Notes: generated by a model not told the origin, from the sequence alone. Counted from the stretch's first letter, positions 3,870-55,151 are shown. The stretch is 64,000 nt of DNA from Candidatus Micrarchaeota archaeon (GCA_028867135.1 JAGWGW010000001.1:53598-117597); one strand, 5' to 3'. Numbers and translations are program-made.

Positions 3870-4769
3870 ATGTTAGATTCTATGAAGACGAAGTCAGAAC
3901 TTAAGTCGCAGTCTGCGATGGAATACCTGATGACGTATGGATGGGCGATTCTCGCGATTGCAATAGTCATGGTCTCGCTCTATTCGCTCGGCATATTCAA
4001 TGTTGCAAACCTGAAGCCGGCTGCGAACCCAGGTTCTTGCGAAGTTGTTAGGACAACTGCCCAAACATCTCTTGCTGGACAGTGCAGCAACCTTATTCCG
4101 AAATATGTTGGGCAGTTCAATGGGGCAAGTAGCATAAATGCAGGAACTGGGGCAAATATGAATTTCGGTTGGACTAATCCATTCACAATCACGGCATGGA
4201 TAGAAACTAGCCAAGCAGCAGGTTCGTATTATGTCATTGTTGGAAAGGCATCGGGAGGCCAAGGATATCTTCTTTCTGTAAATAGCGGCGAAGCTACAGT
4301 ATATTTGGTTGGTGCCTGGGCTTCTAACCGGATTCAAATCGCTTGCAGCAGTAGCGTAAATGACGGCAAATGGCATTATATAGCAACCACTTACAACGGA
4401 AACAAGAGCGCAACTGGAACATATGTATATATGGATAATACGCAGTGCCACGCGGTTGTAGCAGACGCCCTAACCTCTAATTTTGCAACAAACAACAATG
4501 TCCAAATGGGATATATGGCAGGATGGGGAGGGTATCAAGGTTCAACTGCAGATATCCAGATTTATAATACCTCCTTGGACAATACCTCGCTAAAGGCCCT
4601 TTATCAAGAGGGCATAGGGGGCGCACCTATAGATGTAGGCCATCTAGTAGCATGGTGGCCGCTGAACGGCAACGCGAACGACTATTCAGGAAACAACAAC
4701 CAAGGAACATCGACGAATATAGTGTGGAATGCAAACTGGCAGAATAACTACACCCAACCAGGCTCATGA
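3870..4769 (+). CDS. type IV pilin-like (class III signal peptide) LamG/concanavalin-like domain protein, paralog 1
   Basis: Short basic leader (MLDSMKTKSELKS or MKTKSELKS), then QSAMEYLMTYGWAILAIAIVMVSLYSLGIF (Q+1, E+5, hydrophobic helix). Conserved Cys pair CEVVRTTAQTSLAGQC. LamG-like core (QFNG..S ... FTITAW ... DGKWHYIATTYNG ... VYMDN ... ADIQIYNTSL). Three paralogs are present in the window. Confidence 0.8.
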   Translation: MLDSMKTKSELKSQSAMEYLMTYGWAILAIAIVMVSLYSLGIFNVANLKPAANPGSCEVVRTTAQTSLAGQCSNLIPKYVGQFNGASSINAGTGANMNFGWTNPFTITAWIETSQAAGSYYVIVGKASGGQGYLLSVNSGEATVYLVGAWASNRIQIACSSSVNDGKWHYIATTYNGNKSATGTYVYMDNTQCHAVVADALTSNFATNNNVQMGYMAGWGGYQGSTADIQIYNTSLDNTSLKALYQEGIGGAPIDVGHLVAWWPLNGNANDYSGNNNQGTSTNIVWNANWQNNYTQPGS

Positions 4770-4777
4770 TGAAGGAG

Positions 4778-5242
4778 TTATCTTTTCTTAGAGTTCTTCT
4801 TGAATAGGGTCACTGCCTTCCTGAACTCCTCTGGAGAGTCGAAGTTCTGGTAGATGCTCACGAACCTTATGTATGCAACAGGATCAAGCTTGAATAGCTC
4901 CTTCACCACCATGTCACCTATGCTCCTGCTGTCTATTTCCTTAATTCCCTTGCTTCTTATCTTCATCTCTATCTTGTCTGCCATCTTGTCCATCGTCTCC
5001 CTGCTTATGGCTCGCTTCTCGCATGCTTTCATTATTCCGTTGAGTATCTTGCTCTTGTCGAAAGGCTCCCTTGCGCCGTTCCTCTTTATGATGGTGATCT
5101 CCGCGAAATCCGCTTTCTCATAGGTCGTGAATCTCTTCTTGCAGGATTCGCAGGCCCTTCTCCTTCTTATGCTGTCTCCGCTCGGGCTCTCCCTGGAATC
5201 GACAACCTCTGTGTTGTAATATCCGCAATAAGGGCACTTCAT
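4778..5242 (-). CDS. nrdR: transcriptional repressor NrdR (Zn-ribbon + ATP-cone)
   Basis: MKCPYCGYYNTEVVDSRESPSGDSIRRRRACESCKKRFTTYE is the NrdR zinc ribbon, followed by an ATP-cone-length C-terminus. Confidence 0.88.
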   Translation of the reverse strand: MKCPYCGYYNTEVVDSRESPSGDSIRRRRACESCKKRFTTYEKADFAEITIIKRNGAREPFDKSKILNGIMKACEKRAISRETMDKMADKIEMKIRSKGIKEIDSRSIGDMVVKELFKLDPVAYIRFVSIYQNFDSPEEFRKAVTLFKKNSKKR

Positions 5243-5246
5243 TGTC

Positions 5247-6152
5247 TCACTTGGTTATTATCTCGCACGAGTCCTTTCCTACCACTACCTCCTTCTCTGC
5301 CTGCGCTACCATTCCTTTCGACCTTTCTATGAGCACCGGGAACGCTTCAAGGGCTTCCATGTTGAGCATCTCTGCAATTCCCCTCCTTATGCCGAATTCC
5401 GACGTGTCCTTCATCTCGTTCCTCAGCCATCTCAGTGCGAATGGGAACGTCTTGTAGTTGTTGCTTATGTGCTCCATTACCTTCCTTGTTTCAGCTGCTC
5501 TTGCGGCGATGTCCTTCGTCTTCTGGAATATCTCAAGGAACTCTCCGTCTTCAACAAATCCCTCTCCTGTAGTCATGAATGGCTCTATTGCTATAACCTC
5601 TCCCTCATTTAATACGCTTTCGTCCCCATTGTCATAATTGGGTACGAAGACGCTGGCGTGCAGTTCTTCTCTCTCTACTCCATGCCCGCCGAGGTTCTTT
5701 ATTGGATTGAATCCGTACTCCTTAGCGATTTTCTCTATCGCAGCCCCTATCGAATTTACCTTTACTCCGTCCTTTACCATGCTTATCGCCGTTTCGAGCG
5801 CCTTTTCGCTCGCCTCTACCAGCTTTCCGTTGTTTCCCGATAGGTCTATCGTTATAGCACAGTCGGTCAGGTAATCGCCCTTCCTTGCGCCTATGTCAAC
5901 CTTCACGATGTCTTTCGGCCCGAATACGGTCTTGTCGTCATATGAAGGAGTGTAGTGCGCTGCCTGCTCGTTCACCGATATGTTCACAGGAAATGACATC
6001 AGGCATCCCCCGTCTTTTATCAGCTTCTCTATCCCCTCGGCCACATCAAGCAGCTTCGCCCCTTCCTTTACTATCTTCCTTGCATGAACGAGGGCCTCTG
6101 AGGATATCTTGCCTGCTTCTCTCAACTTGTCGTAGTCGTAATCATCTTCCAT
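5247..6152 (-). CDS. map: type 2 (archaeal/eukaryotic) methionine aminopeptidase
   Basis: 301 aa. It has the pita-bread-fold pattern (AAHYTP, DIVKVDIGA, GHGVE, IEPF) and the C-terminal helical insert typical of MAP2. Confidence 0.87.
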   Translation of the reverse strand: MEDDYDYDKLREAGKISSEALVHARKIVKEGAKLLDVAEGIEKLIKDGGCLMSFPVNISVNEQAAHYTPSYDDKTVFGPKDIVKVDIGARKGDYLTDCAITIDLSGNNGKLVEASEKALETAISMVKDGVKVNSIGAAIEKIAKEYGFNPIKNLGGHGVEREELHASVFVPNYDNGDESVLNEGEVIAIEPFMTTGEGFVEDGEFLEIFQKTKDIAARAAETRKVMEHISNNYKTFPFALRWLRNEMKDTSEFGIRRGIAEMLNMEALEAFPVLIERSKGMVAQAEKEVVVGKDSCEIITK

Positions 6153-6153
6153 G

Positions 6154-8604: not shown

Positions 8605-9030
8605 TCAGCCCGCTCCGGTTCCGCTGCCCGCAGGCGCCTCTGTCAGCTTTGCCCTGGACAATGGAAGAGGTGCTACGAACCCTATTGAATAGGCAACAAG
8701 CGTGCCCCTTGCACCGCATTCGAAGTTAAGCATGTTTATGACGTCTTCGGCGAATTTCAGCGGCAGCGTCTTCTTGCTCTTCCAAGTGCTCTCTATGTCC
8801 TCAGCATCCTTCCTCGATTCCTTTGCGCTTATCGTGCCGCTTATCGTTAGCTTGCCTACAGCCTTTGCCTTGTCTGATCCCTCGTATGCGGTTACGAAAG
8901 TGAAGCCCACGTCAACGTTCTCCTTGTCGACCTTGACGCTCTCGAAGTTAATGTTGAACTTCATGTTTGAGATCATTTCCTTGAGATCCCTTGTTGCTTC
9001 TATCTTGTTTACGTCTATGTTTGTTATCAT
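8605..9030 (-). CDS. hypothetical protein
   Basis: 141-aa ORF with coding-like composition, immediately downstream of polB. There is only a vague resemblance to SecB-like beta-sheet chaperones, and no motif I can name. Confidence 0.55.
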   Translation of the reverse strand: MITNIDVNKIEATRDLKEMISNMKFNINFESVKVDKENVDVGFTFVTAYEGSDKAKAVGKLTISGTISAKESRKDAEDIESTWKSKKTLPLKFAEDVINMLNFECGARGTLVAYSIGFVAPLPLSRAKLTEAPAGSGTGAG

Positions 9031-9148
9031 ACAATCACTCTAGTATTTTTCAGCATAATATAACAATATACCTATAAAATGCTTTCTGTATTCGCTCGTT
9101 CGGCCCAATAAGATTGTATATTATAACGTATTGTCAAGGATTATAAAT

Positions 9149-9223
9149 GGGCATGTGGCGTAACTTGGATAGCGCACCTGGCTTCGGACCAGGGGGTTGC
9201 GGGTTCAAATCCCGTCATGCCCG
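9149..9223 (+). tRNA. tRNA-Arg (anticodon TCG), uninterrupted
   Basis: 75-nt cloverleaf: GGGCATG / GCGT-AACTTGGATA-GCGC / CCTGG-CTTCGGA-CCAGG / GGGTT / GCGGG-TTCAAAT-CCCGT / CATGCCC-G. Confidence 0.9.
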
Positions 9224-9339
9224 CTACGATTTGCAAAAATTTATTTTTGTAAAACCTTTTGGGAATCGGTTTAAATAATTTATCATGCGCATGTATTTCC
9301 AGTAACCTTTTCCAAGGAGAACTGGATTGTGAAAGACAA

Positions 9340-10650
9340 ATGATAGTGATGAAGTTCGGCGGCAGCTCTGTGGCAAACACGGAGATGATAAAAGGCGTCG
9401 CCGGCATAGTGAAGTCACAAGTCAAGAAGAAGCCTATTGTTGTTGTGTCAGCCCTGGGAGGCGTGACCAACGATCTTATAGAGGCAGCTACTTTTGCCGC
9501 GAATGGCTCTGGAACAAAAAAATGCGACGAGATAACGGGCCGGCACCTTGCTGTGATAAAGGAGCTGGGTCTTGGGGAACAGATAATAGGAGATGAAGTT
9601 TCACAACTAAGGCGCGAAATGGAGAAGATTGGGGCTGGCAGAAACCTCAACCAAAAGTCGCTTGACACTGTGATGTCGTTCGGGGAGCGCATGTCCGCCA
9701 GGATAGTGGCCGCATGCTTGGTTTCCGTCGGCGTCAACTCGAAGGCGTACGATGCCTTCAACATCGGGCTGGTTACAGATTCAAGCTTCGGCAACGCCAA
9801 CCCGCTTCCCAAAGCAAGCTCTATGATAAGGAGATCGCTCAGCGGAGTTTCGGGCGTCCCGGTCGTGACGGGGTTTATTGGCAAGGACAGGGTCGGAAAC
9901 ATAACCACATTGGGCAGGGGAGGAAGCGACTATACTGCATCGCTGATAGGAATGGCGGTAAGGGCGAAGGAGATCCAGATATGGACCAATACAAATGGCG
10001 TACTTACCGCTGATCCGAGAATAGTGAGTGGGGCTCTGAACATCAGGGACCTTTCGTACGAGGAGGAGCTTGAGCTGGAGTACCTTGGCGCAAATACATT
10101 GCATCCTAAGGGAATAAGGCCCGCTTTTGAAAAGAACATAACCGTCAGGGTGCTGAACACGCTGCACCCGAAGGAGAGCGACACCGTGATAAAAAGCAGG
10201 ATCAATGAGAAGATGCGCGTTGCCTCCATCACGCACAAGGACGGCATGCATATTATCCTGTTGCGCGCGCAGGATCCGCCGAAGAGGCTTCATGACGTTT
10301 TTGATATAATAAGAAGGCACGGTATTTCAATAGATTCGGTATTGACATCAAGGACAGACATTATGATCATATTCAGCGGGTATTACAACGGGAACATCAA
10401 GGATGCCCTCAAAGAACTGGGCAGTGTCGGAAAGGTTTCGATAAGGAGCGGAAGGGCCAAGATATCGGTAGTTGGGAAGGCCCTCTTCTCAATCCCTGGG
10501 ATATCTGGGAAGATTTTTTCCTCTTTGGCAGACATGCCTATAGAGGCCATATCATATGGCAGCTCCGGCATGAGCCAGAGCTTCTTTGTCAAGGAGCAGC
10601 ATGCGGGCACAGCGATAAGGAAGCTCCATAGGACGTTTTTTGGTGCATAG
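9340..10650 (+). CDS. lysC: aspartate kinase
   Basis: [12 protein letters not shown]-terminus, the amino-acid-kinase pattern ([12 protein letters not shown]) and C-terminal ACT-like repeats. ATG at 9340. The ORF-track 5' extension runs into the tRNA flank. Confidence 0.88.
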
Positions 10651-14264: not shown

Positions 14265-15122
14265 ATGCGCAAATTGCAGTCTGCGATGGAGTACCTGATG
14301 ACTTATGGGTGGGCGATTCTCGCGATTGCGGTCGTGATGGTATCCCTCTATTCCATAGGGATATTCAACTTGGGGAGCCTGACACCAACAGCGACTCCGG
14401 GCGCATGCCAGGTGATAAGGACCGCTGCGCAGACGAGCCTTGCGGGGCAGTGTACGAACATAATTCCAAAGTACGTGGGGCAGTTCAACGGAGCGAGCAG
14501 CTACATCAAGACCTCTTTTGTGAACAAGGCCGGATCGTGGACCATTTCGGCCTGGGCTGATGCAAGGCAGTTCCAAACTGCGAATCTCAACTCAAACCAC
14601 CATAACATATTGGATTCGGACCTGTCGGGTTCTTACGGCAATGGCTTCGGGATAGAGGGATCGCCGACGGTGCTCAGGGTGATATACAACAACGGCTTCC
14701 TGAACTACAACTATAACTTCAACACCGGGACATGGTACGACATAACTGTGGTTTACAACACGAACAACGGCACTGTAACGCCTTATGTCAATGGAATCTC
14801 GCTTGGGGGCAGCAGCGTTACATTTGGCGCTTCCCTTTATCAGCAATATTACATTGGTAGGGACCAGCCGAATGCGGTTTATTTCAACGGGTCGATTGCG
14901 AATGTGCAGATCTATAACACCACCATAGATGCTGCATCGATACAGACGCTGTATAGGAAAGGTATAGGAGGCGTGCCGATAGACCTGGCGCACCTGTCCG
15001 CGTGGTGGCCGCTGAACGGCAATGCCAATGACTACTCAGGAAACAACTATCAGGGCAATGTTACAGGGCCTGTGGTCTGGAGCGCGGACTGGCAACCTGG
15101 ATATGCGGCCCCAACCACGTGA
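14265..15122 (+). CDS. type IV pilin-like LamG domain protein, paralog 2
   Basis: MRKL|QSAMEYLMTYGWAILAIAVVMVSLYSIGIF, CQVIRTAAQTSLAGQC, a LamG-like core, and the conserved tail WWPLNGNANDYSGNNYQG. The ORF-track start at 13893 is an antisense read-through of the neighbouring gene. Confidence 0.8.
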   Translation: MRKLQSAMEYLMTYGWAILAIAVVMVSLYSIGIFNLGSLTPTATPGACQVIRTAAQTSLAGQCTNIIPKYVGQFNGASSYIKTSFVNKAGSWTISAWADARQFQTANLNSNHHNILDSDLSGSYGNGFGIEGSPTVLRVIYNNGFLNYNYNFNTGTWYDITVVYNTNNGTVTPYVNGISLGGSSVTFGASLYQQYYIGRDQPNAVYFNGSIANVQIYNTTIDAASIQTLYRKGIGGVPIDLAHLSAWWPLNGNANDYSGNNYQGNVTGPVVWSADWQPGYAAPTT

Positions 15123-17633: not shown

Positions 17634-19253
17634 ATGAGTCTGTTAGGTCTGGTCGCAGCTCTAGTTTTAGCTACCTCCTTCTCCTGGGCAAGAATGTTTG
17701 CAGCCCTCTTCCTATCCATGATAATAAGCCTGCTGCTCGGCATCTACATTGCGACGTCAAAATCTGGGGAGAGGATAGCGCTTCCATTGGTGGACATACT
17801 TCAGACGCTGCCGATACTCACCTTCTTCCCGTTCGTGGTGCTGGTAGTCCTGAGGACCATACCGAATTCCCTTGGTTTGAACGTGGCGGTTGTCGTCCTC
17901 ATAGTCACGAGCATGGTATGGAACATGATCCTGAGCGTCTATGAATCAGTCAAGACCATACCAAACGAGATATTGGAGGTCGGAAGGCTTTACAAGCTCC
18001 ATCCGGTAGAGAAGCTGAGAAGGATATTCATACCTGCAAGCATGCCAAGGCTGGTGGAGCAGTCGATACTGTCGTGGGCTATAGGCCTCTTCTACCTGGT
18101 CACGAGCGAGATATTCTCCGTGGGCAACAGCTGCCCTGTCGGAGGAGGAGGAGCGTGCCATGTCCAGATGGGCATAGGCGTGGCGATAGCGCACCTCGCT
18201 CCTGACAGCACAGGATACCTCATAGGCATCCTGGTGTTCATAGCGTTTGTAGTCGCAACCAGGTTCGTCTTCTTCAAGCCGCTGGAGGAGCATTTCAGCA
18301 GGTACATGAAGGGGAGCGCGATAAGGCCAGATAAGGTCACCGTATACAGGAGGATTGCCAGGGATTGGATCGGGAGGATGCAGAAGGTGAGGATAGACAT
18401 CGGGATAAAGAGAAGGGGCCTCAAGGCCGCTGATGACATATTGATGTTCAGGAGGGAGATGAGGAGAAGGTACAGCAGGATAAGCGCCAGGATAAGGATG
18501 TGGTACGTTGTCATTGCGCTGTTTGCAGTGGTCGTCGTTGCATACCTTTCGGCAAACTACACGTCATTCATAGCGAACGAGCCCATAGTGCTGATAGCGA
18601 TGCTCTTTTCATTTGTAAGGGTGTGGGTAGCATACATAGCTATAGTCGCTGTTGCGCTTCCCATCTGTGTCTACCTCGTATTCATGTCAAAGAGGCGCAG
18701 CGGATACATAACATTGTTCCAGGTGATGGCTTCAATACCTGCGACAATACTGCTTCCGTGGATAGCGCTCAATCTGAAGAACGGGGAGCTTGTGGCGTTC
18801 GCGGTGTTCTTCCTTGCAGGCATATGGTACGTCATATTCGGCGTCATGGCCAACGCATCTACGATACCGAGCAGCATATTCGAGGTAAGGAGGATATTCG
18901 GGGTCAGGGGCATGAACGCGTGGAAGAACGTCTACGTCAAGGCGCTGCTCCCGGGGCTTATAACAGGCAGTATAACCGCGATAGCTGCTGAATGGAACGC
19001 GAGCATCGTGGCAGAGTACTTCACCAGCAGCGGCATCAGCGGCCTTACCGGGGTCTATACGCAGGTGGGGAGCATGGTCCTATTCGGCAGGACCATACCT
19101 CTTGGCATAGGATACCTGCTTGACGGCGCACTTGTCAACGGCCAGCTTGTCGTGATGGGGTTTGCGATATTCAACCTTGTCGTGATGATAATAGTAATTA
19201 ATAGGCTTGTGTGGAAAAGGATGTATAGCCAGATTGCAAGGACTTATAGGTGA
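17634..19253 (+). CDS. ABC transporter, duplicated permease (anion/NitT-TauT-like)
   Basis: 539 aa with about 12 TM segments in two halves. Each half has a binding-protein-dependent permease-like loop. An ABC ATPase follows 5 nt downstream. Confidence 0.72.
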   Translation: MSLLGLVAALVLATSFSWARMFAALFLSMIISLLLGIYIATSKSGERIALPLVDILQTLPILTFFPFVVLVVLRTIPNSLGLNVAVVVLIVTSMVWNMILSVYESVKTIPNEILEVGRLYKLHPVEKLRRIFIPASMPRLVEQSILSWAIGLFYLVTSEIFSVGNSCPVGGGGACHVQMGIGVAIAHLAPDSTGYLIGILVFIAFVVATRFVFFKPLEEHFSRYMKGSAIRPDKVTVYRRIARDWIGRMQKVRIDIGIKRRGLKAADDILMFRREMRRRYSRISARIRMWYVVIALFAVVVVAYLSANYTSFIANEPIVLIAMLFSFVRVWVAYIAIVAVALPICVYLVFMSKRRSGYITLFQVMASIPATILLPWIALNLKNGELVAFAVFFLAGIWYVIFGVMANASTIPSSIFEVRRIFGVRGMNAWKNVYVKALLPGLITGSITAIAAEWNASIVAEYFTSSGISGLTGVYTQVGSMVLFGRTIPLGIGYLLDGALVNGQLVVMGFAIFNLVVMIIVINRLVWKRMYSQIARTYR

Positions 19254-19257
19254 ACCG

Positions 19258-20004
19258 ATGGCGCTCATAAATGTCGATCACATATCATACACCTTCGAGG
19301 AAAGCGACCTGAACATCATAGAGGACGTATCGTTCACCGCGGGGAAGGGCGAGTTCGTCTCCATAGTAGGGCCCTCGGGATGCGGCAAGAGCACGCTCCT
19401 GAGGATGGTCGCAGGGCTTGTGAAGCCGACCACAGGCAGCATATACTACATGAACAGGGAGATCACCGAACCGAACAGCAAGATATCCTTCGTATTTCAG
19501 GATTTCGCGCTCATGCCCTGGCTCACGAACCTCGAGAACGTGAAGATAGGGTTGTCTTTCTCAGACATGGATGAGGATGAAAAGAACAGGAAGGCCGCTG
19601 AGCTGCTTGACAGATTCGGGCTCGACGGGTTTGACGATTACTATCCGAATGCGCTGAGCGGGGGGATGAAGCAGCGTGTGGGAATTGCGAGGGCGGTGGC
19701 ATCGGATCCGCAGGTGCTGCTCATGGACGAGCCGTTCAGCGCGCTCGACGAGCTTACGGCCAATACGCTGAGGGCGGATATAGTCTACATGCTGGAGAAC
19801 AAGAACCTGTCTGTCAACTCTGTGATCATGGTCTCGCACAACGTGAACGAAGCCGTGGAACTGTCCGACAAGATAGTGGTGCTCTCTAAGAAGCCGTCCC
19901 ACATCAAGGAGGTGGTCGAAATCAACAGGAAAAGGCCGAGGGACATGAGGAGCAAGGAGTTCCAGAGGATAATAGACAAGGTCTATGCTGCGCTGGCAAG
20001 GTAG
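19258..20004 (+). CDS. ABC transporter ATP-binding protein (NitT/TauT family)
   Basis: Walker A GPSGCGKST, Q-loop, signature LSGGMKQRVGIARA, and Walker B LLMDEPFSALD. Confidence 0.9.
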   Translation: MALINVDHISYTFEESDLNIIEDVSFTAGKGEFVSIVGPSGCGKSTLLRMVAGLVKPTTGSIYYMNREITEPNSKISFVFQDFALMPWLTNLENVKIGLSFSDMDEDEKNRKAAELLDRFGLDGFDDYYPNALSGGMKQRVGIARAVASDPQVLLMDEPFSALDELTANTLRADIVYMLENKNLSVNSVIMVSHNVNEAVELSDKIVVLSKKPSHIKEVVEINRKRPRDMRSKEFQRIIDKVYAALAR

Positions 20005-30325: not shown

Positions 30326-31198
30326 CTATGATGTTGGAGCTGCGTATCCGCTCTGCCAGCTTGAGCTCCAGATTACGTTCGTCGGAATCCCGTGGTTGTT
30401 GTTTCCCGAGTAGTCGTTCGCATCGCCATTGAGGGGCCACCATCCTACAAGATGCTGCAGGTCTACAGGAGCGCCGCCTATTCCTTTGGCGTATGTGGAT
30501 TTTACCGTTGTTGAATCGAGAGAGGCGTTGTACAGCTGCACATCGGCCAACATGATCGAGTTATAGCCATTTGCACCTCCCTGGAACTGGATATGTGCTG
30601 TGGCTGTTGCTAGGGTGTTTGATCCTATGTTGGTGCTCACCTTCTGCACGCCGTTTACGTATATCAGCAGATTGGTCCCATCGAAAACAAAGGAGTAATG
30701 CTGCCACCCCGCTGGAAATGGCCCGGATACGGTTGTAGCGTGCGTTATCCCTGAGCTGTCCCTTGTCCTGAACGCCAGGTAGTCGCTGCTCGCACTGCCG
30801 AAATACGAGTCGAATTCGCTGCCGGCGCCTCCTGCGTTGCCCTGCGTCACAACGCTTATGTATGATCCTCCGCTCCATCCTGATGGCAGATCTGCCCAGA
30901 CCAAGACTGTGAAAGGGCCCTTGGGTCCTGCCGCAGCTGAGACGTTTACATAGCTACCCTGTGCATTGAACTTTGCAACAAACTTTGGGACGAGGTTGCT
31001 GCACTGTCCAGCGAGGCTCGTCTGCGCAGCGGTCCTTATCACTTGGCACGCCACGGAAGAGCCACTCGGGGAGAAGCTGCCGAGGTTGAATATCCCGAGC
31101 GAATAGAGCGATACCATGACTATTGCAATCGCGAGGATGGCCCACCCATAAGTCATCAGGTATTCCATCGCCGACTGCGATCTGCAACTACAGCGCAT
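30326..31198 (-). CDS. type IV pilin-like LamG domain protein, paralog 3
   Basis: MRCSCRS|QSAMEYLMTYGWAILAIAIVMVSLYSLGIF, CQVIRTAAQTSLAGQC, and the tail WWPLNGDANDYSGNNNHG. The ATG shares one nucleotide with the TGA of the upstream aminotransferase gene (TGATG). Confidence 0.8.
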   Translation of the reverse strand: MRCSCRSQSAMEYLMTYGWAILAIAIVMVSLYSLGIFNLGSFSPSGSSVACQVIRTAAQTSLAGQCSNLVPKFVAKFNAQGSYVNVSAAAGPKGPFTVLVWADLPSGWSGGSYISVVTQGNAGGAGSEFDSYFGSASSDYLAFRTRDSSGITHATTVSGPFPAGWQHYSFVFDGTNLLIYVNGVQKVSTNIGSNTLATATAHIQFQGGANGYNSIMLADVQLYNASLDSTTVKSTYAKGIGGAPVDLQHLVGWWPLNGDANDYSGNNNHGIPTNVIWSSSWQSGYAAPTS

Positions 31199-40229: not shown

Positions 40230-40496
40230 ATGGACAAAGGCGTGGCCCTTCGGAAATTGAGGGATGAGGGCTATACCAGGTTTCTATCTTGGGAAGACAA
40301 GCCTGGCAAGAGGTACAAGCCGCATTTTCATTTCAAGGCATCCAAGATATTTGTCCTGAAGGGTTCTATGAAAGTAACGATCGGGGATAGGGCCAAAAAC
40401 TACGTTTCTGGGGATTCTGTCTTTGTCCCAAAAAAGACAAGGCATAGTGCAGTAGTTGGGATATCAGGCGGCGAATTTCTCGAGGGACAGAAATAG
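40230..40496 (+). CDS. cupin-domain protein
   Basis: Small beta-barrel pattern H.H...E...G....G ... H (KPHFHFKASKIFVLKGSMKVTIGD...GDSVFVPKKTRH). Confidence 0.6.
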   Translation: MDKGVALRKLRDEGYTRFLSWEDKPGKRYKPHFHFKASKIFVLKGSMKVTIGDRAKNYVSGDSVFVPKKTRHSAVVGISGGEFLEGQK

Positions 40497-40516
40497 ATTG
40501 AGCTCTTGTTTTACCT

Positions 40517-40768
40517 CTACTTTTCGCTCACTATTATCGTTTCGGATATCTTCTTTACCCTCTTGAACATTATGCTGTTCTTGAGGAAGTCATCCCTTAG
40601 GTTCCCGCTCCTTATCAGGTTCTCAACGTTGTTCAGGAGAAGGTGCGACACGGCTGCATCGTCTATGTTGATTATCACGCCCTTGACCTCTCCTAGCACC
40701 CTGCCGTCAGAAGCTATGACCTTCTTGTTATAAAGTTCTGAGATTGCAACTCCCGCCATACCATCCAT
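40517..40768 (-). CDS. PRC-barrel domain protein
   Basis: ISELYNKKVIASDGRVLGEVKGVIINIDDAAVSHLLL is a typical PRC-barrel N-terminal pattern. Confidence 0.6.
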   Translation of the reverse strand: MDGMAGVAISELYNKKVIASDGRVLGEVKGVIINIDDAAVSHLLLNNVENLIRSGNLRDDFLKNSIMFKRVKKISETIIVSEK

Positions 40769-41317
40769 CTATATACGCGATATCTTCTTGGAAGCGAAAA
40801 TTCTTATTATGTACTCATTGAGCAGCTTTATGAATGCGCCCTCATCCTTCGCTTTTTCCGCCAGCTCATCCTTTGTGAATAGGTCGACGTTTGACTCAAC
40901 GAGGTTCCTTATGTAGTTGTTGGTTATCGAATAGAAGCGCTGTCCGCAGGCTGCGCACTTGAGCGTGGGCATCACGGGGACGTTTGTTATGGATGACGGA
41001 TCTGCCGAATCGAGCTCGCGCCTTATCCCCGCCCTGCCGCATTTCTGGCATTTTGCATCTATTGTTATCCCTTGGTATGCGCCTACCTTTACAACCCTTG
41101 AAGCTGGGTTTCCCAGGTAGCTATCCAGCTCGGACATGGGTTCCCCGCCCCTCTTGTATACCTGGTTCGCTATCTCCCCCTTTGCCGTAAACTCTGTTAT
41201 AAGGGACCCTAGTGCAGTCCTTTCCGCAAGGCAGAAGAGAGTCATGCCGTTTCTGGAGTAGGTGCCGGTCCTGAGCCTTTTGTCGTCGCTCTCGTATATG
41301 TCGAGCCTATTTTCCAT
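40769..41317 (-). CDS. hypothetical zinc-ribbon protein
   Basis: 182 aa with CQKCG...CAACG. It abuts the PRC-barrel gene with no gap and overlaps the upstream histone-fold gene by 11 nt. Confidence 0.55.
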   Translation of the reverse strand: MENRLDIYESDDKRLRTGTYSRNGMTLFCLAERTALGSLITEFTAKGEIANQVYKRGGEPMSELDSYLGNPASRVVKVGAYQGITIDAKCQKCGRAGIRRELDSADPSSITNVPVMPTLKCAACGQRFYSITNNYIRNLVESNVDLFTKDELAEKAKDEGAFIKLLNEYIIRIFASKKISRI

Positions 41318-41555
41318 CCAGAGCCCTTTTTATGACATAGTCCTTGATGTCCTTCTTTGTCACCTTTCCTCTCTTGTCCTTGATCGCGTTCTGCACAGCG
41401 AAGCTGGATATCTTCTTTGCCTCTTTCTCGAGTATCTCCGCTATCCTCTCGGCCCCCTTCTCGGTTATCTTCACGCCGAAGTTCCTGTTCACTATGTGCT
41501 TTATCTTCTTTGCGGATATCCTTGTCATCAAATCAGCACTCAAGATCCTCATCAC
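41307..41555 (-). CDS. histone-fold-like small DNA-binding protein
   Basis: ISAKKIKHIV...VKITEKGAERIAEILEKEAKKISSFAVQNAIKDKRGKVTKKDIKD resembles a single histone fold (helix-loop-helix-loop-helix). The call is weak. Confidence 0.5.
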   Translation of the reverse strand: MMRILSADLMTRISAKKIKHIVNRNFGVKITEKGAERIAEILEKEAKKISSFAVQNAIKDKRGKVTKKDIKDYVIKRALDGK

Positions 41556-41600
41556 TGCTCAGAGTCAGAGTTCATCACTCTTGTCTATTCCCATTGCAGC

Positions 41601-41644
41601 ATTATAAATTTATACATGGGCTATGAGTAAAGATTTATATAATC
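41601..41644. promoter_or_regulatory. divergent promoter region with two TATA-like boxes
   Basis: ATTATAAATTTATA (41601-41614) faces the minus-strand histone-fold operon. TTTATATAAT (41635-41644) lies about 40 nt upstream of the trxA ATG. This is judged by sequence pattern only. Confidence 0.3.
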
Positions 41645-41682
41645 TAGAAGCGTAAAACGCTCAACGCTCCTATGTGGTAGAT

Positions 41683-41997
41683 ATGATAGACTTAAACAAG
41701 GACAATTTCGATGCGGAGGTTTTGAATGCGAAGCAGCCTGTGCTGGTGGATTTCTGGGCCGAGTGGTGCGGGCCGTGCAGGATATTCTCACCGATAATAG
41801 AGGACGTCTCCAAGGACTACGCCGGCAAGATAAAGTTCTTCAAGCTTAATACTGACGAGAATTCTGACATAGCCTCAAGGTACAACATAATGAGCATACC
41901 GACAGTTCTCCTGTTCGAGAAGGGCGAGGTGAAGGCCATGTCGGTAGGCGCGCTTCCTAAGGAATCGTTCAAGAGATGGCTCGAGAAGAACCTATAA
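41683..41997 (+). CDS. trxA: thioredoxin
   Basis: WAEWCGPCR active site. ORF length is 104 aa. Confidence 0.92.
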   Translation: MIDLNKDNFDAEVLNAKQPVLVDFWAEWCGPCRIFSPIIEDVSKDYAGKIKFFKLNTDENSDIASRYNIMSIPTVLLFEKGEVKAMSVGALPKESFKRWLEKNL

Positions 41998-42040
41998 CAG
42001 CACTTATATCTTTTACTCTCTAATCCAATACATTGGTAAC

Positions 42041-45041: not shown

Positions 45042-48000
45042 ATGTCTTTCTTTGTACCGTTATTAATAGGCATATTGTCAGTGGTACTTCCTGGATATTT
45101 CCTTGCGCTGGCGCTGCTAAAGAAGACAGGAATGCCGATGTTCGAGATAGCGGCCATAGGTGTCATATTCGGTCTGCTGTTCCCTCCTGCGCTGACCTGG
45201 TTCGAGTCCTATTTCATGGATTTCGTGCACTTCTTTGCGTTCTCGGAGAGCCTCTACATTGTGAATGTTGCGGTGCTGACAGTCATAGGCATAGCGCTTT
45301 GCGTACAGCAGGGGGCCATGCGGGTCGGACTTCTTGGAAGAAGGTCTGAGCAGGAGCTCAAGAGCGAGCTGAACAGGGACTACAAGATAAGGCTGGCCTC
45401 GTTGCGCGGCAGGCTATCCGAGCTTGGAAGCGACGTCAAGATAATAAGGGAGCACCAGAAGGAGGAGGAAGAGCTTGCGAAGAGGCACAAGGATGAGATG
45501 GAGCTGATGAAGGATGCGGGCGCGGAGGAAAGGATGGGAATCGAGGAGCACCATCTCAAGCAGGAGAAGGAGCTGTTCGAGGAGCATGAGAAGGAGGAGC
45601 TGATGCTCATAGGAAACGCTGCTAAGAGCGCGGGTTGGTTCAGGAACGAGTATGTGTGGATCATCCTGCTTGCGCTTATGCTGGTCACTTTCGCGACCAG
45701 GATAGAGAACATAGGCGTTGCGTCGAAGTATTTCGAGTTCGACCCGTATTTCGACATGCTGAGCACAGGATACATAATAGTGCACGGGTATCAGCCTTAC
45801 TACGACCACTCGGCATGGCCCGTGGAGCCTAGCGGTACTCTTCACAGGATAGAGCCCATTGTTCCCTACCTCGAGGCGTTCTGGTACGACATCTCCAACA
45901 ATCCGCACGTAAACAGCGCATCTATAGACACCAACCTCATGAGCACGGTGAGCAGCTTCTATCCGCCTGTGGTCGCGGCTCTGCTGGTCTTCGTGGTCTT
46001 CATGCTCCTTTACCACCAGTATGGCAGGTTTCCCGCGTTGATCGGGGCGGCCCTTGCAGCAGCCATGCCTGCCCTTATAACTACGTTCATTGCTGGGGAG
46101 CAGCTGCTCGAGCCCTGGGGGATCTTTGCTATGTTCTTCTTCTATGCGTCCTACATGCTAGCTGTCAGCAACCCCAAGGAGAAGAGGTATGCTGTGCTTG
46201 CGGGCATCGCGTTCGCGTCGAACTTCCTTGGTGCGCATTATTACATTGTGCCGACCGCCATACTTTCCATCTACATCATACTGCAGGGAGTCCTTAACGT
46301 GCTCAGGAAGGAGGACAACCGCGACTTCTACGTGATGAACGGGATAGTCCTCCTCATCATCACGATAACGTTTGCGCTATACGATCCTTACGGTGGGACG
46401 CTGAACAGCAGGATACCTTATGTGCTGGGATTCATACCTGTCACAATAGCATTCCCTCTGTTCTCGTATCTTTTCATAGCGCTGTTCGAGCGGCTGCCGC
46501 TGGTCTTGGAGGAGAGGAAGGTACTGCCGAGGTTCACAGTGTACCATTATCTGGCGTTCCTGCTGCTGCTGGTCGCGGTGGTGACGCTGCTCGTGCTGTT
46601 CACCAGCCTCGGTAACTCTGTAAGAGGTTACATAGACATAAGCAAGAGGTTCACCACGCCTTCAAAGCCGTTGTTCATGACGGTCCAGGAGTACACGCCG
46701 ACGGGACCCAACTTCAATTTCGGAAGCGCTGGCTTCGGATTCATAGGCAGCATGTTCGGCGGTGTGTCCCTCTTCGTGTGGTTCGCGCTGATAATCTTCA
46801 CGGTGCTGGCACTGCTTGCAATATACTACAGGAACTCGAAGACCAGCATATTCGCTGTCGCAGCAGTGTGGCCGCTCGCGATAGCTGGCATGATCGAGAT
46901 AAAGTACCTGCCGCATTTCGGGGTGGGATACATAGTTGCGATAGGCATAATACTCGGGGAACTGCTGCTCATTGTCGGAAAGGAGCAGAAGAAGACCATG
47001 AAATACGCGCTATATGGGATAGGTGCAGTTATAGTGCTGTTTGAGATGGGGCCTCTGCTGCTGCAGGCTATCCCGGCCGCATTCAACAGCAACTGCGCGT
47101 CACTGTCGCAATACCAGAACAGCATAGGGCTGAGCATGTACTGCAACACGGTGCCCAACTACTGGCTCTCTGCGACGCAGTGGATGAGGAGCAATGTGGG
47201 GCCGCACGGGCCAAGGATACTCTCATGGTGGGATTACGGCGACTGGATAAACTGGTTCGGGAACAGCAACGCCGTGCTCAGGGGAGACAATGCCGTAGCG
47301 CAGGAGGACTATGACACCGCTGCCCAGTTCGTCTTCGGGCCTGCAGACGGCTACAACAGCTCCACACTTGCAGCCTTCATGGACAAGTCGCAGGCCAAGT
47401 ATGTCCTTTTCGACGACCAACTGTTGCCCAAGTGGGGTGCACTCAACTTCCTGGCATGCATAGACGTGAACCAGACAAGCATGGCGTACGCGTTTGCGCA
47501 GGGAAAGCCGCAGGGACAGCCTTACGCTCTTGGCACGTCGAACTGCGAGGTAACTCATGCGCCAGCGTATGTGGTCATACCCGTATCCACCAGCATAAAC
47601 AACTACTGCACCTTCTCCAATTCTAGCGTGCAGGCGATGAAGGGCGTCATACTCTCAGGGGGGTCATACCAGAACGCAAGCGTCTGCATACCGGTTACAT
47701 TCCTGCAGAACGCGTTCCTGAACGGCTATCTGGCTAATGGGGTCAAGACCTCTGTCTATTACGAGAACGGCACAAAGAGCAACATAGTCCTTGTGTCGGA
47801 CTTCTTCGGCGGAGTCAACTCTGCCGGAGGCCAGACCATCGTAAGCTTCGTCGCGCTCTATACGCCTAACGGGCCTAACGGCACGATAACAGATGCGCCA
47901 AGCAGGTTCTATGACTCAAACTTCTACAAGGGCTTCTTCCTAGGAAAGCTTCCTGGCTTGACGCTGGTGTATCCAGGCAACGTGGCCGGAGTCAATTACA

Positions 48001-48113
48001 TCAACTCTACGAACAAGATCATGATATTCCAGATTGATAACTATACCGGCTCTCTGCCAGCGCTCAATACCAAGCCACCGTGGATAAGCAACAACTATAC
48101 GATGCCTGGATAA
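45042..48113 (+). CDS. aglB: archaeal oligosaccharyltransferase AglB (STT3 family) with N-terminal extension
   Basis: WWDYG motif at 47226-47240 (ILSWWDYGDWINWFG). First-loop acidic motif FEFDPYFD. Many TM segments and a large C-terminal soluble domain. Confidence 0.9.
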   Translation: MSFFVPLLIGILSVVLPGYFLALALLKKTGMPMFEIAAIGVIFGLLFPPALTWFESYFMDFVHFFAFSESLYIVNVAVLTVIGIALCVQQGAMRVGLLGRRSEQELKSELNRDYKIRLASLRGRLSELGSDVKIIREHQKEEEELAKRHKDEMELMKDAGAEERMGIEEHHLKQEKELFEEHEKEELMLIGNAAKSAGWFRNEYVWIILLALMLVTFATRIENIGVASKYFEFDPYFDMLSTGYIIVHGYQPYYDHSAWPVEPSGTLHRIEPIVPYLEAFWYDISNNPHVNSASIDTNLMSTVSSFYPPVVAALLVFVVFMLLYHQYGRFPALIGAALAAAMPALITTFIAGEQLLEPWGIFAMFFFYASYMLAVSNPKEKRYAVLAGIAFASNFLGAHYYIVPTAILSIYIILQGVLNVLRKEDNRDFYVMNGIVLLIITITFALYDPYGGTLNSRIPYVLGFIPVTIAFPLFSYLFIALFERLPLVLEERKVLPRFTVYHYLAFLLLLVAVVTLLVLFTSLGNSVRGYIDISKRFTTPSKPLFMTVQEYTPTGPNFNFGSAGFGFIGSMFGGVSLFVWFALIIFTVLALLAIYYRNSKTSIFAVAAVWPLAIAGMIEIKYLPHFGVGYIVAIGIILGELLLIVGKEQKKTMKYALYGIGAVIVLFEMGPLLLQAIPAAFNSNCASLSQYQNSIGLSMYCNTVPNYWLSATQWMRSNVGPHGPRILSWWDYGDWINWFGNSNAVLRGDNAVAQEDYDTAAQFVFGPADGYNSSTLAAFMDKSQAKYVLFDDQLLPKWGALNFLACIDVNQTSMAYAFAQGKPQGQPYALGTSNCEVTHAPAYVVIPVSTSINNYCTFSNSSVQAMKGVILSGGSYQNASVCIPVTFLQNAFLNGYLANGVKTSVYYENGTKSNIVLVSDFFGGVNSAGGQTIVSFVALYTPNGPNGTITDAPSRFYDSNFYKGFFLGKLPGLTLVYPGNVAGVNYINSTNKIMIFQIDNYTGSLPALNTKPPWISNNYTMPG

Positions 48114-48122: not shown

Positions 48123-49259
48123 TTGTTGAAGGTAATCATAGCACAGCCATACATAAACCTAAGGGGAGGAGTCGACAGGGTGATACTCAGGATAGCCGAG
48201 CATTACAAGGCGAAGATCCTGACCCTTGAATACGACAGTAGGAATTCTTTCGATGAATTCTCGAAGCTTGACATAGAGGTCGTGGGCAAGAAGGTGCCGT
48301 TGTCAGGGATGCTGCCCTACAGGGCATCGCAGGGCTTCAGGTACGGCTACAGCTTCTACAACATGAAGCTCGATGAAGACTACGACGTCATAAACGCGCA
48401 CATCTCGCCGAGCGAATGGATAAGGCACAGGAACGAGAGGGTGCTCTGGTACTGCCATACCCCTCCAAGGGAGGTCTACGACCTTTACGACACGAGGATG
48501 AAGGGCAGGGGCGCCAGGGAGAAGCTTGTCTATGCGGCGATGGCAAAGGCCTACAGGCTGATTGCGAACGGGGTGACAAAGGACATAGAGGAGATAGCCA
48601 CAAACAGCGAGACGACAAAGGAGCGGATTAGAAAGTACTACTCTAGGAGCGCAACTGTCGTGAACCCAGGAATAGACGCCAGAGGCTATGCGAACGGTGG
48701 CGACGGAAGGTTCTTCCTCTACCCTTCCAGGATACTCGTCAACAAGAGGCAGGAGTATGTCATAGACGCGTTCAGGAGATTCGCGAAGGCAAGCAAAGGC
48801 AATTATGAGCTTGTGATAGCAGGAAGCCTGTCAAATGACCCTGAGCACCAGCTGTACTACGAAAAGATAAGGGAGATGGCAAGGGGCCAGAGGATCCGCA
48901 TAATCAAGAATGCCAGCGAGGAGAAGCTCAGGAACCTTTATTCGACATGCTCCGCTGTGCTCTTCGCAGCTATGAACGAGGACTTCGGTTTCATACCGTT
49001 GGAGGCGATGGCGAGCGGCAAGCCGGTCATATCCGTCAACGAAGGCGGCCCGAGGGAGACGATAATCGACAACAAGACAGGCTTCCTTGTCGGCTCTCCT
49101 AAGGAGATGGCTGATAGGATGCTCTTTGTAACTGAGCACAAGGACATCGCGGAGAGGATGGGCAGGGAGGGCAGGAGGAGGGCCGAGAATGAGTACAGCT
49201 GGAACAGGTTCTTCGAAAAACTGGATCCCTTGATGAAGAGGGTAGCAAAGGGACGTTAA
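48123..49259 (+). CDS. GT4-family (group 1) glycosyltransferase
   Basis: EDFGFIPLEAMASGKPVI and E..G.LV motifs. TTG start, with no nearby ATG. Confidence 0.85.
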   Translation: MLKVIIAQPYINLRGGVDRVILRIAEHYKAKILTLEYDSRNSFDEFSKLDIEVVGKKVPLSGMLPYRASQGFRYGYSFYNMKLDEDYDVINAHISPSEWIRHRNERVLWYCHTPPREVYDLYDTRMKGRGAREKLVYAAMAKAYRLIANGVTKDIEEIATNSETTKERIRKYYSRSATVVNPGIDARGYANGGDGRFFLYPSRILVNKRQEYVIDAFRRFAKASKGNYELVIAGSLSNDPEHQLYYEKIREMARGQRIRIIKNASEEKLRNLYSTCSAVLFAAMNEDFGFIPLEAMASGKPVISVNEGGPRETIIDNKTGFLVGSPKEMADRMLFVTEHKDIAERMGREGRRRAENEYSWNRFFEKLDPLMKRVAKGR

Positions 49260-49264
49260 ACGAT

Positions 49265-53456: not shown

Positions 53457-53468
53457 TGGCTTGGTTCC

Positions 53469-53990
53469 ATGATAATAGCCATCTCTGGACTCACTGGTTC
53501 TGGAAAGACGACGATAGGGGAGAAGGTTGCAAAGGCCCTGAATGTCAGGTACATCTACACGAGCCACAAGCAGTCGGTCAAGGAGATAGCCGACGTTGTG
53601 AAGTTCACCAGGAAGGCCACCCCAGCATTCGAGAAGAGCTTCGATGCAAGGATCGTGGGCCTTGCGAACAGGCAGGACTGCGTGGTAACGACATGGATGG
53701 GGCCTTGGCTGATAAAAAAGGCTACGGCTAGGGTATGGCTCTACGCGAGCCTTGATTCAAGGGTCAGAAGGAAGATGAAGGAGGTAAAGATGAACTACAG
53801 CAGGACGAAAAGGTACGTGCTTGAGAAGGACAGGCTCAACATGAAAAGGTTCAAGAAGATTTACAACGTAGATATAAACGACCACGGCATATTCGACATA
53901 TGCATCAATACTGAAAGGCTCGAGGTCAGGCAGACTGTCAACATGGTCATTGCGCTTAGCGCTGAAAAGGATAGCAGGAAATTCAAATAG
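53469..53990 (+). CDS. cmk: archaeal cytidylate kinase
   Basis: IIAISGLTGSGKTT P-loop, 173 aa, in the conserved neighbourhood. Confidence 0.85.
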   Translation: MIIAISGLTGSGKTTIGEKVAKALNVRYIYTSHKQSVKEIADVVKFTRKATPAFEKSFDARIVGLANRQDCVVTTWMGPWLIKKATARVWLYASLDSRVRRKMKEVKMNYSRTKRYVLEKDRLNMKRFKKIYNVDINDHGIFDICINTERLEVRQTVNMVIALSAEKDSRKFK

Positions 53991-53997
53991 TGATTTT

Positions 53998-54273
53998 ATG
54001 GTGTTGCTGGAAGAGGGAAGGTTGTGCGTGAAGAAGCTTGGAAGGGACGCTGGAGACAGGGCGGTCATTACAAAGGTAATAGACGCTAATTTTGTGAGCA
54101 TAATAAGCTCCTCGAGGATAAAGGAGAGGAAGTGCAACGTGAAGCACCTCGAGTTCCTTTCGGAGAGGATAGACCCTGATAACAAGGAGCAGCTTGCAAG
54201 GGCCCTTGAGATAGAGGTTTCGAAGCTTGTTGGAGCGCCAAGGGCGCCTGCGAAGAAAGAGAGGAAGCAGTAA
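53998..54273 (+). CDS. rpl14e: ribosomal protein L14e
   Basis: KOW-like GRLCVKKLGRDAGDRAVI. ORF length is 91 aa, starting at the ATG after the cmk stop. Confidence 0.8.
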   Translation: MVLLEEGRLCVKKLGRDAGDRAVITKVIDANFVSIISSSRIKERKCNVKHLEFLSERIDPDNKEQLARALEIEVSKLVGAPRAPAKKERKQ

Positions 54274-54284
54274 GCCTCCAAGTC

Positions 54285-55151
54285 TCAGGTAGTAGGCGCA
54301 GTATATCCTGACTGCCAGTTCGCATTCCATATTACATTTGTAGGAGTTCCTTGGTAGTTGTTGCCTGAATAATCGTTTCCATTTCCGTTGAGCGGCCACC
54401 ATCCTACAAGATGCTGGACATCTATCGGGGCACCACCGATGCCTGCTTGATATAATCTCTTTACTGTAACATTATCCAGAGAGATATTGTAAATCTGAAT
54501 ATTTGCTATAGAACCATTGAAATATTGGTTGTATCCTGGAGTGTCGTAACCAACACTAGTTATATCACCAGTTATCGGCATAGTCCCGCTTTGCGCTGCT
54601 GTGTTGTCTACTTTCCCATTTAGATAAACCAACTCGGTAGAGCCATTATAAGTTATTGCAACTTGAGACCAAACAGAAATCTTTATCGCTGTATTACCAC
54701 ATGTCCAGTGCCATGTGCTTGTTAATATCCCTCCACCGACGCAATCCGACGCACCTATCGAAGGATTACCAAATCCCAAATAATAAGGGCCATTTTTTGC
54801 TACGATAGTACCTACCGACGAAGTAGATGGCCTTACCCACGCAACTATTGTTATATAATTTATGGGATTCAGTAATGCTGAAGAGGCACTTAGACTTATC
54901 ACACTATTCTGACCATTGAAGCGTGCCACATATTTAGGAATTAGATTTCCACACTGTCCAGCAAGACTTGTCTGTGCCGCAGTTCTCAAAACTTGGCACG
55001 AGCCAGGAATCGCGGTTGGCGCCAAGTTGCTTAGGTTGAATATCCCCAATGAATAAAGGGAGACCATGACGATGGCGATTGCGAGTATCGCCCATCCATA
55101 AGTCATCAGATACTCCATCGCAGACTGCGACTTGCCTATGCCTAGATTCAT
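54285..55151 (-). CDS. type IV pilin-like LamG domain protein, paralog 4
   Basis: MNLGIGKS|QSAMEYLMTYGWAILAIAIVMVSLYSLGIF, CQVLRTAAQTSLAGQC, a LamG-like core, and the tail WWPLNGNGNDYSGNNYQG. Confidence 0.8.
   Translation of the reverse strand: MNLGIGKSQSAMEYLMTYGWAILAIAIVMVSLYSLGIFNLSNLAPTAIPGSCQVLRTAAQTSLAGQCGNLIPKYVARFNGQNSVISLSASSALLNPINYITIVAWVRPSTSSVGTIVAKNGPYYLGFGNPSIGASDCVGGGILTSTWHWTCGNTAIKISVWSQVAITYNGSTELVYLNGKVDNTAAQSGTMPITGDITSVGYDTPGYNQYFNGSIANIQIYNISLDNVTVKRLYQAGIGGAPIDVQHLVGWWPLNGNGNDYSGNNYQGTPTNVIWNANWQSGYTAPTT

Follow-up and report, generated by a model that had tools for sequence, protein, structure and literature searches.

How ultrasmall archaea of the DPANN group recognize and attach to their hosts is an open question, and proteins with a LamG domain have so far figured in it only as generic 'adhesion domains'. 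An expansion of LamG/concanavalin-like proteins in Micrarchaeota and other DPANN archaea, with a presumed role in host contact, is already published: their abundance, a partial linkage to type IV pilus loci and a proposed function in host interaction were noted for Micrarchaeon Mia14 and the Undinarchaeota (PMC5498576; PMC7414124). The four genes described here (genes 1 to 4) belong to this same family (arCOG07813) and lie dispersed on a stretch of 64,000 nucleotides from the tiny symbiotic Candidatus Micrarchaeota archaeon (GCA_028867135.1 JAGWGW010000001.1:53598-117597). The whole of this stretch is termed the window, and positions refer to it unless another locus is named. The reports on Mia14 and the Undinarchaeota do not include the features on which this analysis centres, namely a prepilin-like N-terminus with Gln at +1 and Glu at +5, a cysteine hairpin, a layout of conserved base and variable head, and insertion or replacement of copies at the strain level.

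Other described systems resemble these genes in part. The Epd pilins of Methanococcus maripaludis (type IV filament 'system 1', ATPase clade 1) have in common with them a short basic leader and the Gln+1/Glu+5 register, followed by a hydrophobic helix (PMC4371748), and by signal type they appear to be the nearest archaeal relatives. However, Epd pilins carry Gly or Ala at position -1 where the LamG family has Ser, Leu or Ala, their globular domain is small or absent in contrast to a LamG domain of 25 kDa, and they are encoded in an epd-like operon, whereas the LamG genes are dispersed. The Streptococcus sanguinis pilin PilC, which has a concanavalin A-like lectin module, was shown by experiment to be a glycan-binding adhesin at the pilus tip (PMC9934059). 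It would be the nearest experimentally characterised analogue, as its class III signal peptide is followed by a pilin moiety of unusual shortness and a lectin of the ConA-like/LamG superfamily, features predicted for the present family. PilC is nevertheless bacterial, possesses an extra Ig-like module and is a single copy inside the pil locus, not part of a multi-paralog, strain-variable repertoire, and no homology was detected between the N-terminus of the LamG family and the pilin part of PilC. The Sulfolobus bindosome proteins (GlcS, AraS and others) likewise combine a class III signal peptide, a hydrophobic helix and a ligand-binding ectodomain, with genes situated away from the assembly machinery (bioRxiv 10.64898/2026.04.22.720090). 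They differ in having the solute-binding fold of ATP-binding cassette (ABC) systems and genes beside ABC transporters, while the window family has a LamG fold and is not found beside a transporter.

Taken together, the four genes are interpreted here as encoding putative surface adhesins of a Micrarchaeon that are modular and type IV pilin-like, with exchangeable heads, an interpretation to which we give slightly better than even credence. As an earlier note on this DNA had described, all four are intact open reading frames (ORFs) of one architecture: they were translated without interruption into proteins of 285-299 aa that align with each other from end to end (Table 1). The common layout consists of a variable basic leader, an invariant QSAMEYLMTYGWAIL... 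hydrophobic helix bearing Gln+1 and Glu+5, a flexible Pro/Thr-rich linker, a Cys-x14-Cys beta-hairpin and a LamG jelly roll. The helix comprises 31 residues, QSAMEYLMTYGWAILAIA(I/V)VMVSLYS(L/I)GIFN, and is 94-100% identical between paralogs. Identity falls to 56-78% in the linker and cysteine hairpin and to 18-28% in the core and is 59-73% in the last 74 residues, the leaders being unrelated. A six-frame motif scan identified the Q-x3-E helix start exactly four times in the window, at the Gln+1 codons of these genes, and no extra or degenerate copy of the family was found there using tblastn with all four proteins (all outside high-scoring segment pairs with E > 0.1). Two measurements of the earlier note required correction, as the cysteines are spaced by 14 residues and not 15 (e.g. 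C52...C67 in gene 4), and the divergent core covers approximately 125 aa (gene 4 residues 88-211) and not 150. That the likeness of the paralogs is not due to chance is confirmed by the conserved helix set against the divergent core, and by more than 2,100 homologs with the same architecture.

A database search returned 2,124 proteins at E <= 1e-3, and species-representative genomes, when scanned, yielded at least 563 family loci. The closest homologs carry the name Candidatus Micrarchaeota, with the NCBI designation 'LamG domain-containing protein', and 75 of the 76 best genomic loci derive from metagenome-assembled genomes of Micrarchaeota, the other being labelled Marsarchaeota. Homologs and loci bear out that the genes reside in a DPANN archaeon of the Micrarchaeota. 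An exhaustive search of representatives was not informative for the size of the subfamily because giant multi-LamG proteins dominate its listing. Among the top 120 matches of the database search, at least 25 distinct members come from the near-complete relative REEA68 (727 + 120 kb), and the nearest homolog of gene 4 anywhere was only 55% identical. In a sister strain of the window's archaeon, another LamG member of 291 aa was observed approximately 9.2 kb upstream of the position of the window's first base (L077 584-1459), and the density of family copies probably continues outside the window.

Conservation statistics from 104 full-length homologs revealed a strong contrast along the protein, with a mean column entropy of 2.68 bits for the leader, 0.41 for the helix, 1.2-1.6 for the hairpin and first strand, 3.01 for the core and approximately 1.1-1.3 for the last 77 residues. 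Between the window paralogs, synonymous sites in the helix were found to have diverged, as 12-19 of 25-27 codons for the same amino acid were identical (45-70%). This divergence rules out recent gene conversion as the source of the identical N-termini, and the invariance is therefore due to purifying selection at the protein level on old paralogs. Such selection on the helix is as expected for packing in a filament core or for recognition by machinery. A Sec h-region spans about half of the 31 residues of this hydrophobic stretch, which is moreover the most conserved part of the protein, and this is not expected of a discarded signal peptide. Both features argue against a soluble lectin secreted by the Sec pathway with removal of the N-terminus by signal peptidase I, an explanation that we regard as very improbable, even though this is how DPANN LamG proteins have in general been annotated, and they have been listed among those with Sec signal peptides (PMC9563170).

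Further support for a prepilin-type N-terminus comes from the boundary between leader and helix. Among the 104 homologs, leaders range from 3 to 49 aa and are unrelated in sequence, with near-absolute conservation beginning exactly at Gln+1. Position -2 is occupied by Lys or Arg in 97 of the 104 and in all four window genes, and the hydrophobic stretch of 31 aa follows directly. Position -1 is Ser in 43, Leu in 34, Ala in nine and Phe in four, so that a small residue (Ser or Ala) is present in 52/104; in the window, genes 1, 3 and 4 have a small residue and gene 2 has Leu. Gln+1 and Glu+5 were found to be invariant in 97/97 family members of an alignment, as well as in a set of 20 N-terminal modules to which short pilin-like proteins belong. 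These two residues are a hallmark of archaeal pilins processed by EppA, for which RA/QI and KG/QV are known sites (slash, cleavage; PMC4371748). The class III-type N-terminus that had been proposed, with Gln at +1 and Glu at +5 of a hydrophobic helix, is thus supported, with the EppA register, and the pattern at the boundary points to a predicted processing site. The start of gene 1 may be its second ATG (MKTKSELKS...), as annotated in the sister strain. Automatic gene callers often set the start at the Met inside QSAM, and the leader is in this way hidden in annotations.

The same N-terminus was also found on proteins without a LamG head. In related Micrarchaeota loci, short proteins of 137-182 aa start with QSA(M/V/L)E(Y/F)L; they contain Cys, are rich in sequons and in Ser/Thr, and appear pilin-like in size and composition. 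In related genomes, the N-terminus together with a Cys pair, as on the short proteins, also precedes Kelch-like repeats in a protein of 510 aa whose Ser/Thr linker is long, and further fusions join it to other domains. Its occurrence on LamG, short and Kelch proteins alike therefore makes it a portable module, as in bacterial 'modular pilins'. By sequence, this indicates that the LamG proteins carry an EppA-type prepilin N-terminus shared with short pilins of relatives. No Pfam pilin model was matched by the short relatives or the Kelch protein, nor was an NCBIfam equivalent matched by the short relatives.

The prediction of a LamG or jelly-roll core was confirmed in two ways. All four proteins passed the gathering cutoff of Laminin_G_3 (PF13385; 27.6 bits) with scores of 47.8-59.8 bits and E values of 2e-12 to 5e-16. 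AlphaFold2 models were made for gene 4 and for the very divergent gene 1 using a 97-sequence alignment (scores in Table 1). In both, an N-terminal helix of approximately 24 residues leads through a short linker helix to a hairpin of two strands with a cysteine on either side; the beta sandwich that follows contains closing strands and, near the C-terminus, a single helix. In both monomer models the N-terminal helix protrudes (residues 11-34 and 16-39). Foldseek comparison of genes 4 and 1 gave matches to the Bacteroides carbohydrate-binding protein 4dqa, the LamG domain of PAPP-A, pentraxins, LG domains of neurexin, laminin and agrin, and the jelly-roll half of clostridial neurotoxin binding domains (E 5e-11 to 1e-7, probability 1.00, 170-260 aligned columns).

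These alignments span nearly the whole ectodomain, and the conserved C-terminal end therefore belongs to the jelly roll. This was supported by the giant multi-LamG proteins of the exhaustive search, in which the matched unit typically corresponds to query positions ~75-277, while a local hidden Markov model (HMM) test in tandem LamG proteins was ambiguous on register. The C-terminal 75 or so residues singled out in the earlier note are conserved, as stated, but make up the helix and closing strands of the LamG jelly roll itself instead of a module of their own. A separate C-terminal module and a circular permutation were each considered and rejected, as the models place the segment in the same jelly roll, and donor-strand exchange between subunits is improbable, as nothing supports it. 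The base of the fold, made up of the first strand, the closing strands and the helix, is conserved, and the middle 125 or so residues are hypervariable. This layout suggests that the face of the head near the stalk may be fixed and the distal face variable. The predicted LamG head may bind carbohydrate or another ligand.

A possible course of events can be proposed from these features. An archaeal prepilin peptidase of the EppA/FlaK family would cut between the -1 residue and Gln+1, and the pilin-type helix would retain the mature protein in the membrane. It would then be extracted by type IV filament machinery with genes elsewhere in the genome, and be displayed along a thin pilus made up of the short pilins that share its N-terminus, or at the tip of this pilus. 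The cysteine hairpin would serve as a stalk, and the variable heads would bind surface glycans or proteins of a host archaeon that differ from one paralog to the next.

The setting of the genes bears on this proposal. All window ORFs over approximately 150 aa were scanned against Pfam, and housekeeping genes were found across the window (ThyX, SHMT, NrdR, PolB, aspartate kinase, SecY, an ABC transporter, PolD DP1/DP2, RNB nuclease, Cdc6, proteasome alpha subunit, SBDS, exosome subunits, HisRS, thermosome and ADP-forming acetyl-CoA synthetase). Each LamG gene stands alone and is closely flanked by such neighbours, the start codon of gene 3 sharing 1 nt with the stop of the upstream aminotransferase gene and gene 4 starting 24 nt after the acetyl-CoA synthetase gene. 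The sole ABC transporter (17634-20004) is separated from gene 2 by SecY and one other gene. No locus with a TadA/FlaI-type ATPase, platform protein and EppA was identified around the window genes, and the related loci L014 and L042 are also without a canonical operon. L042 holds two short pilins of the QSSLEL type and otherwise only SecDF, NMD3, archease and an exosortase-like gene. The last of these encodes an exosortase/archaeosortase-like membrane protein (PF09721; L042 15232-16755, + strand) near LamG and pilin-like genes of this related Micrarchaeon, which hints at a second surface-anchoring pathway.

A number of results weigh against processing and display as pilins. Characterised archaeal prepilin peptidases prefer Gly, Ala or Ser at -1, Leu being atypical for PibD/FlaK-type sites, and Leu occupies this position in gene 2 and the 33 other homologs counted above, with Phe in four. 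No match to curated class III or pilin models of Pfam and NCBIfam was obtained at E <= 10 with full-length proteins or isolated N-termini, a search in which HMMER filters may drop very short hydrophobic matches, and a profile search identified no solved pilin homologous to the N-terminal module. The predicted helix is short (~24-31 residues) and unpacked against the head in the models, and a modelled head of 25 kDa would be bulky for the body of a filament. Absent from the window, as the earlier note had observed and the Pfam scan of ORFs over approximately 150 aa confirmed, are a T2SSE ATPase, a T2SSF/FlaJ platform protein and an A24 peptidase. A simple scan for the A24 (GxGD-type) peptidase motif also found none in approximately 1.3 Mb around the 76 related loci. 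The one secretion-type (T2SSE-family) ATPase in this DNA, in REEA68 locus L014 approximately 5 kb from a family member, has no adjacent platform gene, its neighbour being a Sec-signal, C-terminally anchored glycoprotein. Among Micrarchaeota in general, this ATPase shows high conservation. Given its neighbour, the gene content of L042 and the lack of an A24 motif, pilus machinery close to family members was rejected for the loci scanned.

The unmatched curated models, the Leu or Phe at -1 in about one third of members and the missing peptidase motif would each be accounted for if the proteins were unprocessed type II (signal-anchor) membrane proteins, with LamG acting as a cell-surface lectin or envelope component. 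Plain anchors tolerate substitution, however, and this helix has stayed near-invariant in thousands of family members, although their ectodomains share ~20% identity and synonymous sites have diverged. That conservation sets in abruptly at Gln, behind leaders of such different length, also speaks for a processing site, and Glu, being charged, is disfavoured at position 5 of a plain anchor helix but typical of pilins (PMC4371748). A signal anchor is consequently considered quite improbable.

Because the window lacks the machinery and no curated class III model was matched, processing and incorporation into a filament stand as inferences, with the machinery step drawn from relatives. Micrarchaeon Mia14 is reported to have two type IV pilus systems, one of them of the Methanococcus (EppA-associated) type, a single FlaK-like peptidase, and some LamG genes linked to type IV pilus loci (PMC5498576). 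A 2026 survey reported 'system 1' filaments in DPANN archaea, marked by a high variety of pilins (bioRxiv 10.64898/2026.04.22.720090). Processing by a prepilin peptidase could also lead to surface display of a bindosome-like or pseudopilus kind, with no long filament. Archaea are known to use class III signal peptides widely for binding proteins other than pilins (bioRxiv 10.64898/2026.04.22.720090; PMC4371748), the LamG genes lie away from filament loci as binding-protein genes do, and a bulky head on a short helix suits the body of a filament poorly. Known bindosome proteins, in contrast, are ABC solute-binding proteins beside transporters, and these LamG genes stand beside unrelated housekeeping genes. 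Gln+1/Glu+5 is in addition the pilin (Epd) signature, and the same N-terminus is present on pilin-sized proteins in relatives. Bindosome-like display is therefore judged unlikely. As regards the filament or adhesin repertoire with a variable lectin-like head put forward in the earlier note, every part of it that could be tested (LamG core, class III-type N-terminus and organism) held, except for the match to archaeal class III signal peptide models.

Comparison to sister strains (NCBI assemblies GCA_028867475.1 and GCA_028867445.1; proteins identical to those of the window, DNA 99.4-99.9% identical) showed that the four copies differ in their stability. Genes 2 and 3 are syntenic in the sister strain and identical over 284/285 and 290/290 aa, respectively, with a GC content at third codon positions (GC3) of 0.66, which is host-like, and 0.62. 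The host range of 0.59-0.73 was taken from 12 window genes, comprising ten housekeeping genes, ORF 45042-48113 and the CARDB gene. Gene 4 and a few flanking bases form a segment of 901 bp that is absent from the sister strain, in which it is replaced (locus L079) by 3 bp between otherwise abutting genes, with flanks 99.4-99.7% identical and no target-site duplication. At gene 1, promoter and leader are ~99-100% identical to the sister strain, identity decays through the coding region of helix and hairpin, and beyond this zone the LamG body of the sister strain (GC3 0.58) and the genes downstream of it (LSM, RNA polymerase) were found to differ from those of the window. That an artefact of assembly lies behind the difference at gene 1 is unlikely because the 5' regions of the paralogs are only ~85% identical in DNA.

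The two variable copies, genes 1 and 4, are of foreign codon composition (GC3 in Table 1). Among 90 family genes in related loci, GC3 was on average 0.07 below that of neighbours, and only 3/90 lay more than 0.2 below, the range of genes 1 and 4. This fits an acquisition of foreign heads along two routes, insertion and recombination within the conserved 5' region, so that heads would be inserted or swapped with DNA of foreign composition. The comparison of strains suggests a repertoire that turns over, with some copies being fixed residents and others inserted or head-swapped. A diversity-generating retroelement was rejected, as no reverse transcriptase domain was identified among the window ORFs scanned.

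A more far-reaching version of the pilin-like adhesin reading, possible but doubtful, is that of a horizontally exchanged, cassette-like repertoire of receptor-binding proteins. The invariant helix and cysteine hairpin would be a universal adaptor to a single assembly machine, the conserved 5' and 3' ends would be recombination handles, and the set of heads would determine which host archaeon can be attached to. If true, this would resemble the exchange of phage tail-fibre cassettes or the antigenic variation of pilins, and DPANN archaea would have their first defined system of host-range determinants.

No published account of the prepilin-type N-terminus, the conserved-base/variable-head layout or the strain turnover of the LamG family was found in the searchable literature, and no paper containing 'QSAMEYL' was returned by a full-text search. 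The family was not singled out as pilin-like in those surveys of archaeal type IV filament substrates that were consulted. LamG-headed proteins are likely to be under-recognised as pilin-like because the leader is often cut off by gene callers and the signal escapes curated HMMs. The head being the only fast-evolving part, and individual copies being gained or swapped between strains ~99.7% identical, a vague annotation can be replaced with hypotheses on processing before Gln, type IV filament display, head-specific host binding and a link between repertoire and host range.

Table 1. Coordinates of the LamG genes, their parts and the strain-variable segments in the window, and of proteins in related loci that share the N-terminus
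Feature	Locus	Position	Strand	Remarks
Gene 1 (LamG paralog 1)	window	3870..4769	+	299 aa; possibly 295 aa from ATG at 3882; Laminin_G_3 E=4.5e-13; pLDDT (predicted local distance difference test) 83.8, pTM (predicted template modelling score) 0.82; LamG/neurexin/PAPP-A folds; GC3 0.45, core 0.37
Gene 1, Gln+1 codon	window	3909	+	
Gene 1, hydrophobic helix	window	3909-4001	+	
Gene 1, Cys hairpin	window	4038-4085	+	
Gene 1, LamG domain	window	~4098-4733	+	
Gene 1, recombination zone	window	3915..4126	+	identity to sister strain decays, gone after nt 4126
Gene 2 (LamG paralog 2)	window	14265..15122	+	285 aa; leader MRKL; Laminin_G_3 E=4.5e-16
Gene 2, Gln+1 codon	window	14277	+	
Gene 2, helix	window	14277-14369	+	
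Gene 2, Cys hairpin	window	14406-14453	+	
Gene 3 (LamG paralog 3)	window	30326..31198	-	290 aa; Laminin_G_3 E=2.2e-12
Gene 3, Gln+1 codon	window	31177	-	
Gene 3, helix	window	31085-31177	-	
Gene 3, Cys hairpin	window	31001-31048	-	
Gene 4 (LamG paralog 4)	window	54285..55151	-	288 aa; Laminin_G_3 E=2e-15; pLDDT 82.5, pTM 0.79; LamG/pentraxin folds; GC3 0.39, core 0.32
Gene 4, leader	window	55128-55151	-	
Gene 4, Gln+1 codon	window	55127	-	
Gene 4, helix	window	55035-55127	-	
Gene 4, Cys hairpin	window	54951-54998	-	
Gene 4, LamG domain	window	~54321-54938	-	
Strain-specific segment	window	54273..55173		901 bp; gene 4 and few flanking bases; absent from sister strain
Short pilin-like / Kelch proteins	L014	2637-3161; 3218-4747	-; -	shared QSA(M/V/L)E(Y/F)L or QSSLEL N-terminus (also all rows below)
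Short pilin-like / Kelch protein	L001	~1545	+	
Short pilin-like / Kelch protein	L022	~17307	+	
Short pilin-like / Kelch protein	L048	~5007	+	
Short pilin-like / Kelch protein	L055	~4214	+	
Short pilin-like proteins	L042	~11992; ~12500	-; -	

Some further features of the window were recorded. A complete tRNA-Ala(GGC) gene (3716-3815, - strand) with a non-canonical T-loop intron of 28 nt (position 59/60) lies divergently, 55 nt upstream of gene 1. It was missed by ARAGORN and scored below the Rfam gathering score, but was called by ARAGORN once the 28 nt were removed. A partial tRNA left as an integration scar upstream of gene 1 had been considered and was rejected, the element being this complete, intron-containing tRNA. 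The neighbouring nucleoside deoxyribosyltransferase gene therefore starts at 3701 and not at 3785. A second tRNA-like match (23049-23107, + strand; 59 nt, 31.2 bits) was obtained with Rfam and not with ARAGORN, and may be an intron-containing, split or truncated tRNA. Low-GC islands were observed at 8701-9500 and 40301-42000 (minimum 0.40-0.44 in 500-nt windows), holding only small unannotated ORFs and, in the first, also a tRNA-Arg region.

Other surface proteins may be encoded on the window. ORF 45042-48113 (+ strand; 1,023 aa) has no Pfam match and a host-like codon composition, and is followed directly by a GT4 glycosyltransferase gene (48123-49259, + strand); its product is a candidate large surface or S-layer protein. 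A protein of 542 aa with a CARDB (cell-adhesion-related) domain (61394-63022, + strand), 100% identical in the two sister assemblies, is a putative second kind of surface protein. NrdR proteins are mostly bacterial, and the transcriptional repressor gene with NrdR domains at 4778-5242 (- strand) could have been acquired by lateral transfer. ThyX (164-1888, + strand) is unusually long at 574 aa and contains two Thy1 stretches, which suggests a duplicated or fused form.

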